DNA of 53,351 nt from a virus. Positions 1,983 to 11,182 of the stretch are shown here, in pieces (the stretch's first letter is position 1; every line of letters starts with the position of its first letter). Under the pieces are notes generated by a model. The model was given only the letters and a program-made list of their open reading frames with translations, was not told the DNA's origin and ran no database searches. Location: UHGV virus genome UHGV-0304279. One strand, written 5' to 3'. A program made the translations under genes and the position numbers.

Positions 1983-4900
1983 ATGAGTAGCGGCGGCGGC
2001 AAAGCAAAAACACCGACTTTAATTAACGATAATCTATATCACAAACAGTTTTATCGTGTACTCGACATTATTTCAGAAGGTCCGATTTATGGTCCTGTTA
2101 ATACCAATGCGCCATTAAACAGCGTAATGCTTAATGACACTCCTGTAACTGACGCGAACGGTAATACCAGCATTCCAGGTGTTAGCGTTGCGTGGCGCAA
2201 TGGTACTGCCGACCAGTCACCGATCAACGGCTTTAATGCCATTGAATCCACGGTGATGGTTAACGCGCAGGTGAAACACGACACGCCACTGGTAAGGACG
2301 GTATCAGATCCGAACGTGACGCGAGTCCGGTTAAATATTGGTGTGGATTCACTGGTGGAAAGCGATAGCCAATCAAACCAGAAAGAAACATCTGTCATTA
2401 TGGCGATCGACGTTAAACCGTCCTCATCTTCCACATGGTCGTCTATCAAGGCCGTGCAAATAGGTCCAGGTAAAATCAGCGGAGAATACCTTGAAGCGCA
2501 TATTATCAATGCGCCAGATGAAAAGCCGTTTGATATTCGCGTTCGCCGTGTAACCGCTGATAGCACAAGCGATCTATTGCAGAATGATACGCGGTGGAAT
2601 AGCTACAGCGAAATAATCGACGATAATTTATCTTATCCTCACACCGCTGTAGCAGGCGCGGTTATTGACCACGATCAGTACACTGACACGCCTACCCGCA
2701 CCTATCACCTGCGTGGGCTTATTGTTGACGTGCCTGATAACTACGACCCGGAAACGCGCACTTATTCCGGTTTATGGCTTGGCGGGATGAAACAGGCGTA
2801 CACAAATAACCCTGCATGGATATTCCGCTACCTGGTTAAAAACGAGCGTTTCGGCCTTGCCCGTCATGCTGGCTACATTGACGTTGACGACGGCGCACTA
2901 TATACGCTATCCCAATACTGCGACCAGTTGGTCGATGATGGTTACGGTGGTCTTGAGCCGCGCGTTACGCTTAATGCTTACATTACGGAGCAAATGAGCG
3001 CACGCGACTTACTGGATAACATCGCCGGGATGTTCCGGGGGATCGCGTTATGGGACGGGCAACGCCTTACCGTGATGATTGATGCACCACAAGATCCAAT
3101 CGCCACCATTACGAATGCAAACGTTGTTGATGGCGCGTTTACTCGTTCAAGTATTTCCCGTGCGGAATGCTACAACGCCGTGATCGTATCCTGGACTGAC
3201 CCGGAAAACGGCTGGGAACAATCAAAAGAGTATGTAGCAGATGATGAATTAATCGCCCGTGACGGTTACAACGAAACCACGATGGAGGCGTTTGGCTGTA
3301 CGTCACGCGGGCAAGCGTACCGCGCTGGCAAATGGCTGATAGAAACAGCAAAACGCGAGCCGTCAAAATTCACATTTAAAATGGCCCGTGACGCGATTCA
3401 CTTTACGCCAGGGGATATTATCGAGATCCTCGACAATAACCGCGCAGGTGCGCGTTTAGGTGGTCGTATCGTGGCGAATAATGGGAACGTGATAACAGTT
3501 GATAAGGTTGACAGCGAGTACATCACGGCAGGCGACACTATCAGCCTGCTTGATAGCGATGGCAAATTTAAAAAACATCAGATCACTGGTATCAGCGGGA
3601 ACAAAATCACACTGGCTGCGGCCCCTGCATGGATTAGAAACGGTACTGTTTTTGCTGTATCAACCGAAGCAGCAAAACCCGTTTTATGCAGAATCACCAG
3701 TGTAGCCGAAACCGAAAATAATAGCGTGTATACCATCGAAGCCGCGCAACATGACCCTAACAAACAAGCAGTAGTCGATGAAGGCGCGATATTTGAAATC
3801 AACAACGACACGCTTAATCACTTCCGTGTACCGAATATTGAAAATCTGAAAGTGGTAAACATCGGATCTGAAACGGTTCAATGCCGCGCAACATGGGAAA
3901 CACAGACAACTACGCATCGCATGACATTCGAGATCCGCATATACAATACCGATGGTGCGGTGGTTAAAAGCTACGAAACAACGAAATACAGTTATGATTT
4001 TTACGGCATTGACGCTGGCGCGTATTCGTTAGGCGTTCGTGGAAGAAACGATACTGGCATGAAAGGTGCTGAAAGTATTGTCGATCTTGTTATTGGTGCT
4101 CCAGCCGCGCCAGTTGGCGTAAATTGGGTTCCCGGCGTATTCCAGGCGACCGTGTACCCGATAAGCAAAACCACGCTTACTACCGATACGTCATATGAAT
4201 TCTACTATGCTGGGGAAAACCAGATCACAGATCCTGCAATAATAACCACATCGGCACAGTTTACCGGGCGCGGGTATCAATGGACGTTCGGCGGCATGAA
4301 TACGGGCCATACTTATTACGTTTATGTGCGCACTCGCAATGCTTTTGGTGTGTCTGATTTCGTCGAGGCATCAGGTAAGCCGACAGAGGATTTTGACGAA
4401 ATTACTGATTACGTTACAAAGGATGTAATGGAGTCAGAGCAATTTAAGGAGATGATTAGCGACATTAAAGATCTTGGCGATCGCACTGACATTGTAGAAG
4501 GAGCTACCGAAGACCTTAAAATAGCTACAGAGGATCTTAAAGCTGACACAGATACACTTAAAAAAGACACCGAAGACCTTTATAAGAAAGTCGAAGAAAA
4601 CGCCGATGAAATAGGCAAACATGAGGTAAGAATAGACTCATTAGAGGTATCAAGCGAAAACGTTAATAACGAACTGGCACAGACAAAAGCAAGTTTACAA
4701 AACGCTTCGCTTGCTCTGATCAACAACTCGCTTGCTCAAACTAACACGCGGGTTACTCTTACCGCTCAATATAAGAAAGGTCGCAACGAAACAAAGGCAC
4801 AGATTGACCGCATTGACAACGTTATCGCAGAGGAGAAAAAAGCGACAGCGGAATCACTGGAAACCATCACAGCCGAAATAAGCACGATGGACTCAAACAT

Positions 4901-6035
4901 CAAAGGAGAGATAGCACGCGTAGACAAAGCAATAGCAACAGAAACGCAGGCAAGAAGCGACGCAATAACAGAAGTTAAAGCTGATCTTACAACGCTTGAA
5001 AGTAATACAAATGCCAGTGTTAGCCGTCTCGATCAGGCCATCGCTGATGAGTCAAGCGCCCGCGCCCAGGCAATATCAGGAATCAGTGCGGAGCTTGGTC
5101 TTGTTGAAAATGAGGTTGATAAAAACAGCGACGAAATAGATCAGGCGAAAGCAAGTCTACAAAACGCTTCACTTGCTCTGATCAACAACTCAATAGCGCA
5201 AAGCAAAATGAGCACTGTTATTGAGGCAAAATACAGGAAAGGCCAGACAAAAACAAAAGCGGAAATAGCAAGGATCGACACCGCAATAGCAGACGAAACC
5301 CAGGCCCGCGCGGAGGCTATAGCATCGCTTGAGGCAAATATTAATGAAAACATTTCAGCAAAAATAACAGATATATCAACGGCGCTTGCAACTCACGAGG
5401 AATCAAGTGCTGAAAAATTTGTTCAAATATCGGCATCTTTCGACGATGTAAACTCAAGCATCACGGAATGGTCACAGGCTATGGCAACGGCAGACGAGGC
5501 ATTATCAACCAAAATTGATCAGCTAACAGTTACCGTTAACGGGAACACAACAGCTATCGAGACGACATCGAAAGCATTAACTGATTTCAAAGGTGACGTT
5601 AACGCATCATATTCAATCAAGATTGCCACTGATAACAACGGCATGAAATATGCCACTGGCATGTCGCTTGGCCTGACTGGTAGCGGGACTAACGTTCAAT
5701 CGCAGTGCATTTTCCTCGTTGACCGCTTCGTGTTAATGACCGCCGCAAACGGCACATATACAACGCCTTTCTATGTCACTGGCGGCGCAATGTATGTACG
5801 TGAAGCGTTTATTAAGGACGCATCAATCACTAACGCGAAAATAGGTTCTTACATCCAATCAAATAACTATGTTTCCGGCAGCACAGGCTGGAAACTTGAT
5901 AAATCCGGTACATTCGAAAACTACGGATCAGTAAGCGGTGAAGGGGCGATGAAGTGGACGAATACAACGATCTCTGTCAGAGATGGAAATAGCGTGTTAC
6001 GCGTCCAGATTGGGCGAATTACCGGATCATGGTAG
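1983..6035 (+). CDS. tail tip / host specificity protein J (central tail fibre), with long C-terminal coiled-coil extension
   Basis: N-terminal two thirds resemble lambda gpJ throughout (N-terminus, NPAW, YCDQ.V.DG.GG.EPR.T.NAY, FGCTSRGQA.RAG.WL motifs); 1350 aa; C-terminal part is heptad-rich with an internal duplication. Confidence 0.9.
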   Translation: MSSGGGKAKTPTLINDNLYHKQFYRVLDIISEGPIYGPVNTNAPLNSVMLNDTPVTDANGNTSIPGVSVAWRNGTADQSPINGFNAIESTVMVNAQVKHDTPLVRTVSDPNVTRVRLNIGVDSLVESDSQSNQKETSVIMAIDVKPSSSSTWSSIKAVQIGPGKISGEYLEAHIINAPDEKPFDIRVRRVTADSTSDLLQNDTRWNSYSEIIDDNLSYPHTAVAGAVIDHDQYTDTPTRTYHLRGLIVDVPDNYDPETRTYSGLWLGGMKQAYTNNPAWIFRYLVKNERFGLARHAGYIDVDDGALYTLSQYCDQLVDDGYGGLEPRVTLNAYITEQMSARDLLDNIAGMFRGIALWDGQRLTVMIDAPQDPIATITNANVVDGAFTRSSISRAECYNAVIVSWTDPENGWEQSKEYVADDELIARDGYNETTMEAFGCTSRGQAYRAGKWLIETAKREPSKFTFKMARDAIHFTPGDIIEILDNNRAGARLGGRIVANNGNVITVDKVDSEYITAGDTISLLDSDGKFKKHQITGISGNKITLAAAPAWIRNGTVFAVSTEAAKPVLCRITSVAETENNSVYTIEAAQHDPNKQAVVDEGAIFEINNDTLNHFRVPNIENLKVVNIGSETVQCRATWETQTTTHRMTFEIRIYNTDGAVVKSYETTKYSYDFYGIDAGAYSLGVRGRNDTGMKGAESIVDLVIGAPAAPVGVNWVPGVFQATVYPISKTTLTTDTSYEFYYAGENQITDPAIITTSAQFTGRGYQWTFGGMNTGHTYYVYVRTRNAFGVSDFVEASGKPTEDFDEITDYVTKDVMESEQFKEMISDIKDLGDRTDIVEGATEDLKIATEDLKADTDTLKKDTEDLYKKVEENADEIGKHEVRIDSLEVSSENVNNELAQTKASLQNASLALINNSLAQTNTRVTLTAQYKKGRNETKAQIDRIDNVIAEEKKATAESLETITAEISTMDSNIKGEIARVDKAIATETQARSDAITEVKADLTTLESNTNASVSRLDQAIADESSARAQAISGISAELGLVENEVDKNSDEIDQAKASLQNASLALINNSIAQSKMSTVIEAKYRKGQTKTKAEIARIDTAIADETQARAEAIASLEANINENISAKITDISTALATHEESSAEKFVQISASFDDVNSSITEWSQAMATADEALSTKIDQLTVTVNGNTTAIETTSKALTDFKGDVNASYSIKIATDNNGMKYATGMSLGLTGSGTNVQSQCIFLVDRFVLMTAANGTYTTPFYVTGGAMYVREAFIKDASITNAKIGSYIQSNNYVSGSTGWKLDKSGTFENYGSVSGEGAMKWTNTTISVRDGNSVLRVQIGRITGSW
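4686..5213 (+). repeat. internal direct duplication inside J coiled-coil region (copies about 4686-4729 and 5170-5213)
   Basis: Near-identical about 44 nt segments encoding KASLQNASLALINNS(L/I)AQ, each followed by a similar about 50 aa block. Confidence 0.7.
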
Positions 6036-6085
6036 AATTAAGGGGCCGACTTGTTCGGCCTCAGTTTTATTATGGAGGTGTAATA

Positions 6086-6397
6086 ATGGCTACTTTCGGC
6101 GTAGCGACCTGGGACGCCAATGGCAATCCTAATAACTACGGTATCAAACCTTCCGTCGTAGTTGGCTATATTTCCTTGTCTTCCGGGCAAGTATCCGGAA
6201 CATATTCTTTTACCGTTCCAACCGGGTGCAAATTATCTTATGGCGTGGCGCTTGATTATGGTACAACATCGTCAACGCGCAGAAAGATCAGCATTTCCGG
6301 CGGCACTGTTTCCATTTCCTCCGCAGGGGATACGGTAGGGGCTGATATATGGCCTGCGTCACAATGTGACCTGATTATTTTTACGGAGATTGCATAA
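6086..6397 (+). CDS. hypothetical protein, MATFG paralogue 1
   Basis: ATG at 6086 with RBS GGAGGT; shares the N-terminal MATFG..(L/W)..NGN motif with the next gene. Confidence 0.5.
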   Translation: MATFGVATWDANGNPNNYGIKPSVVVGYISLSSGQVSGTYSFTVPTGCKLSYGVALDYGTTSSTRRKISISGGTVSISSAGDTVGADIWPASQCDLIIFTEIA

Positions 6398-6996
6398 TGG
6401 CTACTTTTGGCGCTTATTTACGCCTAGATAATGGCAATATTTTTGTAACGCCGGATTCTACCCCGATGTGCTTATATTCGCGGGTGGCATTAAATTCCAG
6501 CCAACAACAAACGATCGCTGTACCCAACGGTAAGCCTGTAATGGTATTCATCAAAAACACCGACGACACCGCTACTGGGCTTGCCTATCGCGCATCATCA
6601 TCTACGGTAGTGATCCCGCCTGGCAACGGGTATGCGTATATATTCAGCATCTTCCCGCCATCGCTGCCGAAATGGGGGATGGCTATCTGGAACGCTTCCG
6701 GGGAACTGGTACTGACCAACGAATCAAAAATATTAACCGACCTTGTTACAGTAGGCACGGCGGGATCGAGCGGGGGGATTTATATCGATCAAACATTATC
6801 AGGATCTTATGCGGTAGTGCCTCAGATATTGGGGGCCGCTGTAGGTATGGGTTCCGCAACAATATATACAGAATCATACTACAACGGCAGCAATACACGA
6901 ATTCGCGGGAAGATGGTTGGTAGCTTGCAACAGATTTACGGTTACATTAATCACGGGAACGCTATCACCGCCATTAAAACCGACGCCTATGATTAA
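6397..6996 (+). CDS. hypothetical protein, MATFG paralogue 2
   Basis: Start overlaps the stop of the previous gene (TAATG); N-terminal paralogy; glycine/serine-rich. Confidence 0.5.
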   Translation: MATFGAYLRLDNGNIFVTPDSTPMCLYSRVALNSSQQQTIAVPNGKPVMVFIKNTDDTATGLAYRASSSTVVIPPGNGYAYIFSIFPPSLPKWGMAIWNASGELVLTNESKILTDLVTVGTAGSSGGIYIDQTLSGSYAVVPQILGAAVGMGSATIYTESYYNGSNTRIRGKMVGSLQQIYGYINHGNAITAIKTDAYD

Positions 6997-7232
6997 TTCA
7001 GTTCCGGGCAATCCGTTTTCTTGAAGTGGTCAACGCTTACCCATTGGAAGTTAAACGGATACCCGGCCTTAACCATTTTATGACCGCCAACATCCGCGAC
7101 ACCGAAGACTGCAACCGCATATTCATTACCTCCAGCCTGATAAGTTGCCGTGCATTCACGTTTCGGCATATCAGCGCAACCAACCATACCAGCGACCATT
7201 GCAGCTATAGCGATATTTTTAAAGCCTTTCAT
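6993..7232 (-). CDS. small lipoprotein (moron), candidate superinfection-exclusion factor
   Basis: Minus-strand ORF inside the tail operon; signal peptide with lipobox-like VGC (MKGFKNIAIAAMVAGMVGCAD); RBS GGAGG upstream. Confidence 0.5.
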   Translation of the reverse strand: MKGFKNIAIAAMVAGMVGCADMPKRECTATYQAGGNEYAVAVFGVADVGGHKMVKAGYPFNFQWVSVDHFKKTDCPELN

Positions 7233-7307
7233 TGTCTTATCCTCCATTGTTCCGTCGGTTGTAGTATCCATAAACATCGTTTTCTCAACATTGATATAAA
7301 TCAATAA

Positions 7308-7362
7308 ATACATTTTGTATAAGCCAGAAATGTAACGCAGATCACAAAATGGTAAAATTACC
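7308..7362 (+). promoter_or_regulatory. restart promoter-like region upstream of the tail fibre gene
   Basis: Contains ATACATTTTGTATA and GATCACAAAATGG motif copies plus extended -10-like TGgTAAAAT at 7350-7358. Confidence 0.4.
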
Positions 7363-7391
7363 AGGTTAATTAACATAATGGAGTCATTGCG

Positions 7392-9170
7392 ATGATTTAC
7401 ACAACAGGCACGATAGCCGTTAGCGGAAACACAGTTACCGGAAAGGGGACTGAATTCAACGCCGCATTATCTCTGATCAGAGTTGGTTGCACTCTTATTG
7501 CCATTAGCGATCCGGTGCAAATTTTTTCAATCACAGAGGTAAAAAGCGCAACAAGTTTGTCGGTAACTCCGGCGGCAAGCCCGTCTATTCCGGCTGGGAC
7601 TAAATTTAGCATCCTGCTTTCAGATTCGATCTCTGTGGATGGTCTTGCTCAGGATGTCGCCGAAACACTACGTTACTATCAGGGCAAGGAATCAGAAATA
7701 GCTGACGCCGTAGAATTTTTTAGCGACAACAAGGATGTAATTTCAGCCTCAAAATTAGCGTCAGAATCGGCTACCACTGCAACTAACGCAGCAACAACAG
7801 CGACAACCGCCGCCAATTCAGCAAAGACATACAGAGACGAGGCCCACGAATACGCCAATCAGACGGCGCAGCCTTACGCGTATGTTTTGCAGCCGCTGCC
7901 GGACGTATGGATACCGTTTAATGATTCACTTGATATGCTCACTGGCTACGGCCCTGGCACTAAAAAAGTAACCATTGATGGTGAAGAAAAAACAATATCA
8001 TCAGATAAGGTTGTTTCTTTCTCACGCGCAAGCACTGCGACCTATATCAATAAATCCGGTGTACTCACCACTGCTGATATTGACGAGCCACGTTTCGAAC
8101 GCGAAGGATTATTAATCGAAGGTACGCGCACGAATTACCTGCGCAATTCTAACAATCCAGCATCGTGGCCTATTCATAGCCAATTAACTAAAGAAACGGG
8201 CGCAGACGAAAACGGGTTTAACTATGCGACAGTAACAGTAAGCGACGATCTTGTAGGGACGACAGGCGGTTACACTGTGCATGGCGTAGTTACAGCTGAT
8301 AGATTTGCATTAGCCGCTGGCGAGAGCCTCACACTTTCCGCTCTTTGCCGTGGTACTAATGCACGCTGCCGGGCGCGTATATCAATTATTGTTGATGGAA
8401 CTGATACATTTTCTGCTGACTCTTATTTAAATTTAAATACAGGTGAAGCGTTAGTGTCTGGTGATACTACGCTAATCACTACGAAATCAGAGCAACGTGG
8501 CGATTGGTATTACTTTGAAACAACATACACAGCAAAGGTTGATATAGATGCTGTTAATTGTTCTTTTTATATATCTAACCTGGTAAATGATAGCTTTTAT
8601 TCCGATTCTTCTATGGCATTAGCAACTCCGCAAATCGAGTTAGGTTCTTGCGCATCATCGTTTATTGTATCAGGTGACACTCCAACCACACGAGCAAGCG
8701 ACATGGTAAGCATACCTACTAAGAATAACCTGTTTAAGCCACCATTCAGTTTTTTACTTGAATTACACAAGGAATGGACAACAGCACCAAACGCAGCGCC
8801 TAGAGTATTTGACATTGCAAACGCAAACACAGGGCAAAGTGTTATAGCTGCTATTAACAGAGGTAGCAGTAAATTTTACGTTTCCTTGTCTAACAGTTCT
8901 GGTACTTACATCAATTCTGCCGCTGATTCCGTATTGCCAAGTAAAGCCATTGTTGGTGCGGTAGTTAAAGGTGATGATACTTTTCACGCGATCATGGATG
9001 GTGTGGCGGTTGCAGATACAACATGTTCCTACGGTGGAGTAACTCAAGACAAAAACATCAGATTCGGCGGCCAGGTAGCAGACGGAGCGCGTCACTTGTT
9101 CGGACATATAAGAAATTTTCGTATCTGGCACAAAGCATTAACTGATTCTCAATTAAGCGAAATTGTTTAA
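7392..9170 (+). CDS. side tail fibre protein with C-terminal lectin-like (LamG/ConA-like) domain
   Basis: 592 aa; Ala/Thr-rich fibre-like segment (SESATTATNAATTATTAANSAKTY); C-terminal domain resembles a concanavalin-like lectin fold. Confidence 0.7.
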   Translation: MIYTTGTIAVSGNTVTGKGTEFNAALSLIRVGCTLIAISDPVQIFSITEVKSATSLSVTPAASPSIPAGTKFSILLSDSISVDGLAQDVAETLRYYQGKESEIADAVEFFSDNKDVISASKLASESATTATNAATTATTAANSAKTYRDEAHEYANQTAQPYAYVLQPLPDVWIPFNDSLDMLTGYGPGTKKVTIDGEEKTISSDKVVSFSRASTATYINKSGVLTTADIDEPRFEREGLLIEGTRTNYLRNSNNPASWPIHSQLTKETGADENGFNYATVTVSDDLVGTTGGYTVHGVVTADRFALAAGESLTLSALCRGTNARCRARISIIVDGTDTFSADSYLNLNTGEALVSGDTTLITTKSEQRGDWYYFETTYTAKVDIDAVNCSFYISNLVNDSFYSDSSMALATPQIELGSCASSFIVSGDTPTTRASDMVSIPTKNNLFKPPFSFLLELHKEWTTAPNAAPRVFDIANANTGQSVIAAINRGSSKFYVSLSNSSGTYINSAADSVLPSKAIVGAVVKGDDTFHAIMDGVAVADTTCSYGGVTQDKNIRFGGQVADGARHLFGHIRNFRIWHKALTDSQLSEIV

Positions 9171-9180
9171 GGTGGTTAGC

Positions 9181-9447
9181 ATGAAAGACGTTAGCTTGCA
9201 ATTTACTGATAAACAGCAATACAACGACATTGTGATTAACAGCGGCTGGCTGGACGAAAATCAGCAAACCGTGTTTATTGATGATATTGGTTTTGTTCTT
9301 GTATTCGATGATCCAGAAAGCGAGACGCCTGTACTGATTGAGAAAAAAGGCTATTACGTCAACATGCGCATTACTGGTGACGATATTGATTTGTCGCCGC
9401 TGGAAAAATTCACCATTCCAGATCCCGGCGTCCGCGCATGGGCTTGA
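9181..9447 (+). CDS. hypothetical protein (possible fibre-associated)
   Basis: ORF coupled to the tail fibre gene; start and function uncertain. Confidence 0.35.
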   Translation: MKDVSLQFTDKQQYNDIVINSGWLDENQQTVFIDDIGFVLVFDDPESETPVLIEKKGYYVNMRITGDDIDLSPLEKFTIPDPGVRAWA

Positions 9448-9781: not shown

Positions 9782-9797
9782 AATGGGGGGGTGCAAC

Positions 9798-10988
9798 ATG
9801 CTTACGGACACCAGGTTAAGGACCATCGCCAACAAGCCATACGACGGCCCAGGCGAGATAGCTGATCGTGATGGCCTGTCAGCCAGGATAAGCCCAAAAG
9901 GGAAAATTACTTTCCAGTACCGTTACAGATTCAACGGTAAGCCAGTGCGAATGAAGATCGGCGAGTACGGGAAAATGAGTCTGAAAGACGCCCGCTACGC
10001 GGTGGCTGAATACAGGGAGTTGCTTACGAAAGGGAAGAATCCGGCACTGTGCGTAAAGCAGGCCATAGCCTTTGAGCAGGGCAAGCGATCTATATCCGAC
10101 GTAGTGGAAGACTATCTATCCCTGCCGAACGTCATTAAGCTGGTGGCATATAAAGAAGTCAAAAGCGCATTGATGCGCCACGTAGTCAACAAGTACGGCG
10201 ACTACATAGCTGACGACGTAACGACAAAACAGTGGATGGATATATTTGGCGAGATCACGAAGGCGGGGCACGCCGTTACGGCAGGTTTGATATTGAAGCG
10301 AATGAAAATCATCGTTAACAGCGCAATCAGGCGCGGGATAATGACTAACACAGCGATAAACAATATCCGTGTAGCTGACGTTGGCGAGCATTATGCTGTG
10401 GGTGAACGTTACCTATCATGCGAGGAAATAGGCCACTTCTGGCGTACTGTAGACAGTTCGCAGATCTATCCGCAGAACAAAATAGCCTTAAAGCTATTGT
10501 TGCTCACCGGGTGCAGGGTGGGAGAATTACAGAAAATGAGAAGGGAACACCTGGACCTGGACAACGGTGTGTGGACCGTTCCGGCGGCGGTGGCGAAGAC
10601 AAGAAGTGAAATCAGGCGGGGATTATCTGACTTGTCGATAAAAATGCTCAGGGAGGTGTTAGCCTCCCATGAGTATGATTATGTGTTCCCGCCAGTGATT
10701 AACGGCGGCAACAGGCCAGTAAACGCATCGGTGATAAAGGTTGCTGCAATCTTCGTGCGTAAAAGGATGGGCGGTAAATCATGGTCCTGTCACGACCTCC
10801 GCAGGACGTGCCGGACACACCTTTCGGCTATAGGTGTCCCAGTACATATTGCAGAAAAGATCTTAGGCCATTCATTAAGGGGAATACTGGCGGTGTACGA
10901 CAAATACGATTATCTTGACGAACAAAAGGAGGCACTAAATAAGTTTGCTGATTATGTATTATCTTTAGCTGACGTTAAACCAATCTGA
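9798..10988 (+). CDS. int: tyrosine integrase (P4-like)
   Basis: Catalytic motifs TGCRVGEL (Arg), HDLRRT (His-x-x-Arg), LGHS (His), AVYDKY (Tyr); N-terminal arm-binding-like domain; RBS GGGGG before ATG 9798. Confidence 0.9.
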   Translation: MLTDTRLRTIANKPYDGPGEIADRDGLSARISPKGKITFQYRYRFNGKPVRMKIGEYGKMSLKDARYAVAEYRELLTKGKNPALCVKQAIAFEQGKRSISDVVEDYLSLPNVIKLVAYKEVKSALMRHVVNKYGDYIADDVTTKQWMDIFGEITKAGHAVTAGLILKRMKIIVNSAIRRGIMTNTAINNIRVADVGEHYAVGERYLSCEEIGHFWRTVDSSQIYPQNKIALKLLLLTGCRVGELQKMRREHLDLDNGVWTVPAAVAKTRSEIRRGLSDLSIKMLREVLASHEYDYVFPPVINGGNRPVNASVIKVAAIFVRKRMGGKSWSCHDLRRTCRTHLSAIGVPVHIAEKILGHSLRGILAVYDKYDYLDEQKEALNKFADYVLSLADVKPI

Positions 10989-11182
10989 TCAAAGAACTGC
11001 ATCACGTCCTGATAGCGGTACATAACGCCACGCCCGGTCCCAAGTGCATCAACAGGGGCCGGAAATGGAGTGCCGTTCCGTTCCCACTTTTTACGCCATA
11101 AGTAAAATGTCCCCCTGCTAATTCCACCAAGCATCCGGCAGATGGCAGGGCGACTAAGAAGTATTGTTCCGGTTTTATCCAT
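10952..11182 (-). CDS. xis: excisionase / AlpA-like DNA-binding protein
   Basis: 76 aa, convergent with and overlapping the int 3' end; HTH-like segment ICRMLGGISRGTFYLWRKK; RBS GGGAGGT. Confidence 0.65.
   Translation of the reverse strand: MDKTGTILLSRPAICRMLGGISRGTFYLWRKKWERNGTPFPAPVDALGTGRGVMYRYQDVMQFFDQIGLTSAKDNT

Follow-up and report, generated by a model that had tools for sequence, protein, structure and literature searches.

Gene organization of the A–B locus

In a 53,351-nt viral sequence, UHGV-0304279, hereafter called the window, two small genes (A and B) are located immediately downstream of a J-type central tail-fiber gene and are followed by cor, a tail-fiber module and an integrase gene (Table 1). 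A GGAGG sequence lies 8 nt 5' of the start of gene A, and the stop codon of A (TAA, 6395-6397) shares one base with the start codon of B (ATG, 6397-6399), forming TAATG. The N-termini of the two proteins, MATFGVATWDANGN in A and MATFGAYLRLDNGN in B, both follow the pattern MATFG...NGN. The resemblance is also present in the DNA, where the first 16 nt match at 15 positions and the NGN-coding AATGGCAAT is the same in both genes. A preliminary description of this DNA had reported adjacent genes with a common MATFG..NGN start, the second starting on the stop codon of the first, and this was confirmed by the coordinates and by the TAATG junction. The length of 199 aa that it gave for B holds, and the 104 aa that it gave for A counted the stop codon, the true length being 103 aa.

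Table 1 Features at and around the A–B locus in the window.
Feature	Position	Strand	Description
J-type central tail-fiber/tail-tip gene	1983-6035	+	1350 aa; Pfam FNIII-A_GpJ, Phage-tail_3, Ig_J, Phage_Tail_Tip
Last 60 residues of J	5853-6032	+	Proposed A/B docking site
GC-rich hairpin (6042-6062) followed by U-rich tract	6042-6072	+	Between J and A (50-nt gap); terminator scan
Gene A	6086-6397	+	103 aa plus stop; all-beta; PHROG 557, N15/phi80 gp22 family
Gene B	6397-6996	+	199 aa; two-part all-beta; PHROG 425, N15/phi80 gp23 family; predicted receptor-binding protein
Third motif copy, inside B	6664-6711	+	Residues 90-105, LPKWGMAIWNASGELV; start of B second half
cor, phage exclusion lipoprotein	6993-7232	-	79 aa from ATG at 7232; lipobox-like MVGC
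Tail-fiber gene	7392-9170		After cor; tail-fiber N-terminus, 'head spike fiber' domain (NCBIfam NF048003), Laminin_G_3/ConA-like C-terminus
Small gene, phrog_1361	9163-9447		94 aa; overlaps fiber gene end
Integrase	9783-10988		Directly after fiber module

Profile searches placed A in phrog_557 (E 3.6e-28, residues 3-101) and B in phrog_425 (E 6.4e-49, full length). Neither protein had a match in a Pfam scan at E <= 0.1, and an NCBIfam scan returned nothing usable. A sequence search of all PDB chains gave no match for B and only matches with E > 1 for A. No signal peptide or transmembrane helix was predicted in either protein, the N-termini are not hydrophobic, and the Kyte-Doolittle hydropathy over 19 residues peaks at 0.87 in A and 1.34 in B. 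[quoted passage not shown] The gene upstream of the pair is of the J type by its Pfam domains, in agreement with the place directly after J that the preliminary description had proposed. That description had also noted that this is where lambdoid phages carry lom. The position is indeed the same as in lambda, but lambda Lom is a signal-peptide-bearing beta-barrel outer-membrane protein, and A and B are unrelated to it, since they have no signal peptide, Pfam match or transmembrane helix.

The gene downstream of B was identified as cor by the NCBIfam equivalog NF047972 (lamb_exclu_cor, 55.8 bits against a cutoff of 31) and by phrog_1119 (E 1.4e-22). A 127-aa open reading frame is listed for cor; its probable start codon is the ATG inside it at 7232, with GGAGG upstream. 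This start would leave about 160 nt before the fiber gene for a cor promoter (7232-7376 region). B and cor are convergent and their stop codons overlap (TTAA, 6993-6996), so that there is no space for a terminator between them. Between J and A, the fold energy of the hairpin is -17.8 to -23.3 kcal/mol. Hairpins of different sequence were found at the same position in T1-like and Dhillonvirus loci (L001, L007-L009, L034, L035, L073), and none in lambdoid relatives, in which the J stop overlaps the A start. The hairpin may be a leaky terminator or attenuator that cuts read-through from J into A and B, or it may mark the end of an antisense cor transcript.

Beyond cor, the 94-aa gene that overlaps the end of the tail-fiber gene could encode a helper of that fiber. 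The 3' end of the integrase gene overlaps a convergent small-protein gene (10952-11182, minus strand), the product of which looks, as judged by eye, like an AlpA/excisionase-type regulator. ARAGORN found no tRNA gene in the whole window, and the attachment site is thus not at a tRNA within the window.

A and B form a widespread and conserved gene pair

Among phage records searched by tblastn, B was found in 348 and A in 345, and the carriers of the pair included T1, phi80 (gp22/gp23), N15 (gp22/gp23), HK022-like phages, ES18, Dhillonvirus and Klebsiella T1-like phages. In all 80 of 80 IMG/VR loci, A was located directly upstream of B with a coupled junction. The junction in 48 other distinct loci was mostly a 1-nt overlap and otherwise 0 or +1 nt; the gene order J-A-B was constant, and a cor homologue followed B in 42 of the 48. 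In many lambdoid relatives the J stop overlaps the A start (gap -4 to +1), so that J, A and B are read jointly.

A is 44% identical to phi80 gp22, and B is 45% identical to phi80 gp23, N15 gp23 and the T1 protein. Across the group formed by N15/phi80 gp22-gp23, T1, HK022-like phages, ES18 and Dhillonvirus JLBYU60, identities to the window are 45-50% for B and about 44-51% for A. The window shares with the N15/phi80 type the J-A-B-cor order, the coupled junction and the conserved J tip. Unlike that type, it carries a short variant of B (197-199 aa in this variant, 199 aa in the window, vs 212-226 aa) with deletions in variable regions, and the receptor could for this reason differ from FhuA. 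The orientation of cor is convergent in the clade of the window, in T1-like phages and in Dhillonvirus, unlike the lambdoid relatives, in which cor is co-oriented. The nearest relatives of the window copy are E. coli prophages with 89% nucleotide identity, in which the genes are annotated as hypothetical proteins plus cor; other closest relatives are Warwickvirus-type T1-like phages, and the closest characterized phage is PeterMerian (62% identity for A and 61% for B). Judged from these comparisons, the pair in the window is an ordinary copy of a widespread, putative two-protein unit.

T1, phi80, N15, HK022 and ES18 are cited as FhuA users (PMC13164509), and every characterized carrier of the N15/phi80 type that is named in the cited sources uses FhuA; this type is regarded as the FhuA-type 'RBP locus' located after gpJ. 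As cited in PMC13164509, Wietzorrek et al. 2006 (phage Rtp) were the first to list the locus across FhuA phages. A literature search on gp22/gp23 of phi80 and N15 returned nothing relevant.

The J protein lacks a receptor-binding domain and has a conserved tip

In the window, Phage_Tail_Tip covers residues 1191-1329 of the 1350 residues of J, which ends 21 aa after this domain, and a Pfam scan of J detected no Ig_GpJ_C receptor-binding domain. The J proteins of PeterMerian and Oekolampad end in the same way after Phage_Tail_Tip and likewise have no receptor-binding domain. In lambda J, by contrast, Phage_Tail_Tip (845-972) is followed by a fused Ig_GpJ_C domain (1001-1132), and receptor recognition is by residues 1001-1132.

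In comparisons of J between loci, the tip was conserved together with A and B. Over the last 60 residues, each of the 47 comparable A-B loci had 58-100% identity to the window; in distant loci, identity fell to 29-48% over the preceding 100 residues and to 18-32% over the 240 residues further upstream. The last 60 residues of FritzSarasin J (BtuB-type) are 67% identical to those of the window, and those of Oekolampad J (LptD-type) are 30% identical.

A coiled-coil-like stretch within J of the window, at about 4686-5600 (residues about 900-1200), holds a tandem duplication, and the repeat KASLQNASLALINNS(L/I)AQ is found there at residues 902 and 1056, similarly flanked in both places. This duplication contributes to the length of 1350 aa, compared with 1132-1192 aa in lambda, PeterMerian and Oekolampad.

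Structure models of A and B

AlphaFold2 models of both proteins were all beta, with a pLDDT of 86.5 and pTM of 0.83 for B and a pLDDT of 83.4 and pTM of 0.70 for A. The first ~20 residues were the part of lowest confidence in both models (block means 51-66). The strands of A (23-31, 38-41, 48-56, 65-71 and 74-81) are placed similarly to those in the first half of B (25-34, 38-41, 48-54, 64-73 and 76-84). The modeled fold of A is a generic beta sandwich; A had no match to Pfam Ig_GpJ_C (PF12421) and no clear fold match to lambda J.

The B model has the fold of the Oekolampad receptor-binding protein, which was solved on LptDE (PDB 9RPT). The Oekolampad protein, bas18_0025, is a single 321-aa chain with Pfam DUF6453, its receptor is LptD, and it has no small partner gene. 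Its gene lies directly after a J gene without a receptor-binding domain and adjoins an exclusion lipoprotein gene. On LptDE the protein is monomeric, and the map shows disorder in the part nearest to the tail (PDB 9RPT). At the sequence level, B had no match to DUF6453 (PF20051), and hhalign comparisons with the DUF6453 alignment were not significant for the B family (E 0.033, 1.5% probability) or for the A family. The link between B and the Oekolampad protein, which differ in having no significant sequence similarity (E 0.03-0.27), thus rests on the predicted model and is made at the level of the fold.

A short motif is repeated three times in A and B

To what extent A and B resemble each other was examined by pairwise and profile comparisons. 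BLASTP of A against B gave just two short matches, A 1-14 with B 1-14 (8/14 identical) and A 1-14 with B 90-103 (LPKWGMAIWNASGE). Alignment of the family profiles with hhalign paired A 1-15 with B 90-104, and phrog_557 weakly matches B 92-119. The motif is thus found in three copies, opening each of the two proteins and recurring where the second half of B begins. The most conserved positions of the A family, among 45 diverse representatives, are G5, W9, G13, N17 and G19.

Enlarged profiles of 54 A and 87 B sequences were scored against column-shuffled controls (150 shuffles). A scored 32.2 against B(89-199) (shuffle null 12.2 +/- 2.5) and 20.6 against B(1-88) (null 11.2 +/- 2.1), and 0 of 150 shuffles reached the score in either comparison. 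The signal was gone or marginal after the first 16 residues of each were removed, the scores being 12.5 for A(17-103) against B(106-199) (null 11.4 +/- 3.0, null maximum 32.6) and 17.0 for A(17-103) against B(17-88) (null 11.0 +/- 2.7, null maximum 23.3). A broader A profile, built from 45 representatives of 22-49% identity, paired A 3-43 with B 92-141 over 40 columns (70.6% probability, E 3.8e-5), and a second common element, GQxSGSY in A and DQTLSGSY in B, was found in this alignment. By profile, A is matched best by the second half of B and not by the N-terminus.

Because the signal vanishes or turns marginal without the first 16 residues, the firm likeness between A and B, as far as profiles can tell, is a motif of ~15 residues, possibly ~40, of the form aromatic-G-x-x-x-W/x-D/N-x-x-G in three copies. 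Descent of whole A and B domains from a common ancestor is plausible from these alignments. The proposal in the preliminary description that the pair had duplicated and diverged is therefore weakly supported: profile alignment extends the similarity past the first five residues, but full-length paralogy did not follow from it, only the ~15-residue motif being significant. With the A profile as an HMM, 88 matches were retrieved from 1.84 billion proteins, none of them a B-like protein; ~60 were stand-alone proteins of ~100 aa, and the long matches with several matching stretches were repeat- or low-complexity-like. Foldseek comparison of the A model with BFVD, in which close homologues are possibly missing or poorly modeled, found no B-like target (all E > 1e-3, TM about 0.4-0.56).

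In the 48 other distinct loci, M-x(1-2)-aromatic-G...[ND]G heads both families; the motif common to A and B is no chance feature of the window. In two separate clades, A and B start with the same five residues, MATFG/MATFG for the clade of the window and MAEYG/MAEYG for a T1-like one, and in most other loci the two starts differ, for example MAYG and MAEFG. The matching starts could have arisen by short gene conversion or by a common constraint on both starts.

A natural receptor switch follows the A–B cassette

PeterMerian and FritzSarasin are of one genus, and between them J is 87% identical as a whole and 97% identical over the first 800 aa. In the BASEL table, FhuA is the receptor of PeterMerian and JulesPiccard, and BtuB is the receptor of FritzSarasin. 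Between PeterMerian and FritzSarasin, A is 27% and B 26% identical. The FritzSarasin locus (4882-6046, L086) carries the lipoprotein gene and the pair on the opposite strand, as an inverted and strongly diverged A-B-lipoprotein cassette. Its small protein (bas04_0024, 92 aa) starts with MAQYGYAIYDDRG, and its larger protein (bas04_0023, 204 aa) starts with MYGMSIKKPDG and contains HGIAFYNAHG internally.

As in the window, the small FritzSarasin protein opens with the motif and the larger one contains it internally; a looser version is recognizable by eye at the N-terminus of the larger protein. The FritzSarasin pair differs from that of the window in its strand, in its receptor and in sequence, the identity to window A and B being 24-27%. 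Profile comparison by hhalign linked the FhuA-type and BtuB-type proteins with 95.4% probability for A (E 1.8e-8) and 96% for B (E 4.4e-9). By these profile matches, the FhuA-type and BtuB-type pairs are distant homologues. In a 2026 preprint, the FhuA-, BtuB- and LptD-type locus families were called unrelated. Since A and B have both diverged between the FhuA and BtuB users, whereas J and its tip have remained similar, A and B change together with the receptor.

The aromatic residue at motif position 6 is W in A and in the copy inside B in the FhuA type, and Y in both copies in the BtuB type. In this comparison of two alleles, the motif of A and the internal motif of B seem to co-vary.

Proposed function of A and B

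Taken together, sequence comparison and modeling suggest that A and B probably act as a trans-acting receptor-recognition unit of the prophage, most likely at the tail tip. B would be a trans-acting receptor-binding protein, most probably with FhuA as its receptor, and A its putative co-evolving partner. The conserved N-terminal segments of A and B and the J tip are likely to form the docking interface, and Cor appears to be the exclusion lipoprotein that matches the receptor of A and B. The preliminary description had guessed at distal tail or receptor-binding accessory proteins. This guess agrees with all the comparative and fold evidence, namely a J protein that has no receptor-binding domain, the co-conserved J tip, the modeled fold of B, the adjacent cor gene and the use of FhuA by the characterized carriers in the cited sources. 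The same assignment was made in published in-silico work (PMC8594841, PMC12309495 and bioRxiv 10.64898/2026.04.02.716166). The modeling study of 2025 among these (PMC12309495) dealt with the JLBYU60 pair, in which an Ig-like small protein is accompanied by a 'hand-like' one of 23 kDa; by its AlphaFold-Multimer scores, the 23-kDa protein was the better candidate for capping the J trimer and for binding FhuA.

A more elaborate form of this reading, which we consider unlikely, is that A and B cap the trimeric J tip as a pseudo-threefold assembly of three domains. A, B 1-89 and B 90-199 would be beta-sandwich units that each start with the hairpin motif and set it on a different one of the identical J C-termini. 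Such a cap would resolve the symmetry mismatch between a trimeric fiber and a single asymmetric receptor-binding head. It would also make the 321-aa single chain of the Oekolampad type a fused equivalent of the pair (A + B = 302 aa) and unite the FhuA-, BtuB- and LptD-type loci in one superfamily.

Small genes beside fiber genes often encode chaperones. A and B might on this ground be assembly chaperones for the J tip or the side fiber that are absent from the virion, the receptor being bound by J or by the fiber encoded downstream of cor. The generic beta-sandwich fold of A would fit such a role, and a chaperone-like function was also raised in PMC12309495. We nevertheless consider this doubtful. 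J lacks a receptor-binding domain, B has the fold of a protein shown to bind its receptor directly, and the receptor switch between PeterMerian and FritzSarasin follows the A/B cassette and not J. In T1-like phages, A and B adjoin J and the lateral fiber genes are found on the other strand at a distance of several kb. Service to the side fiber at 7392-9170 in particular was rejected, because in T1-like phages A and B stay with J while the side-fiber genes lie elsewhere.

The divergence of A between FhuA-type and BtuB-type phages (27% identity) could also be read as a sign that A itself recognizes the receptor, as a trimer equivalent to a split-off Ig-like receptor-binding domain of lambda J, with B as a cap or helper. 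[quoted passage not shown] This arrangement is improbable in our view, as A lacks a Pfam Ig_GpJ_C match, the LptD-type locus has no small A-like gene, and the multimer and FhuA-complex scores in PMC12309495 were better for the B-type protein.

In the KanT1 paper (PMC13164509, 2026), which found no structural matches for the pair and whose proposal thus rested on annotation labels, a role in superinfection exclusion was proposed. Although the strict linkage with cor and the PHROG labels would suit membrane or outer-membrane proteins that act with Cor in exclusion, this is highly improbable for proteins that have no signal peptide or predicted transmembrane helix, are encoded on the late tail strand with cor opposite in the window, start at an overlapping J stop in many relatives, are co-conserved with the J tip and include, in B, a receptor-binding protein fold.

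We therefore return to receptor recognition by A and B at the tail tip, for which the following course may be envisaged. A, B, the last ~60 residues of J and cor would constitute a receptor-specificity cassette. J would form a trimeric central fiber without a receptor-binding domain of its own, and A and B would be expressed from the late tail transcript, with translational coupling through TAATG. Both proteins would dock on the conserved J tip by their conserved N-terminal segments. B, as a monomer built of two beta-sandwich parts and folded like the Oekolampad receptor-binding protein, would then attach to an outer-membrane transporter, most probably FhuA, on its extracellular face, and binding would lead to commitment to DNA ejection. 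A may be a small beta-sandwich partner that varies along with B on a switch of receptor, either as a tip adaptor or co-receptor element or as a helper in mounting B. Cor, encoded on the opposite strand, would block the same receptor from inside lysogens. In this scheme we infer the presence of A and B in the virion, their docking on J, the binding to FhuA and the role of A. A comparable division of labor is described for T5 (PMC9586334, as cited in PMC13164509), with pb5 as a separate monomeric FhuA-binding protein at the end of a trimeric central fiber and Llp as a paired lipoprotein that blocks FhuA from the periplasmic side.

For the window, these results mean an improved annotation and not a new kind of system. 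They go beyond the cited papers in the fold link between B and the Oekolampad protein, in the homology of the FhuA and BtuB pairs, and in locating the conserved parts in the N-terminal motif of A and B and in the last 60 residues of J. Hundreds of genomes of phages and prophages still have A and B labeled as 'hypothetical', 'outer membrane protein' or 'membrane associated protein', yet the two genes probably decide the choice of the outer-membrane transporter for a large group of lambda-like and T1-like phages. If confirmed, this would aid the prediction of receptors from prophage sequences and the design of cassette swaps for the retargeting of phages.
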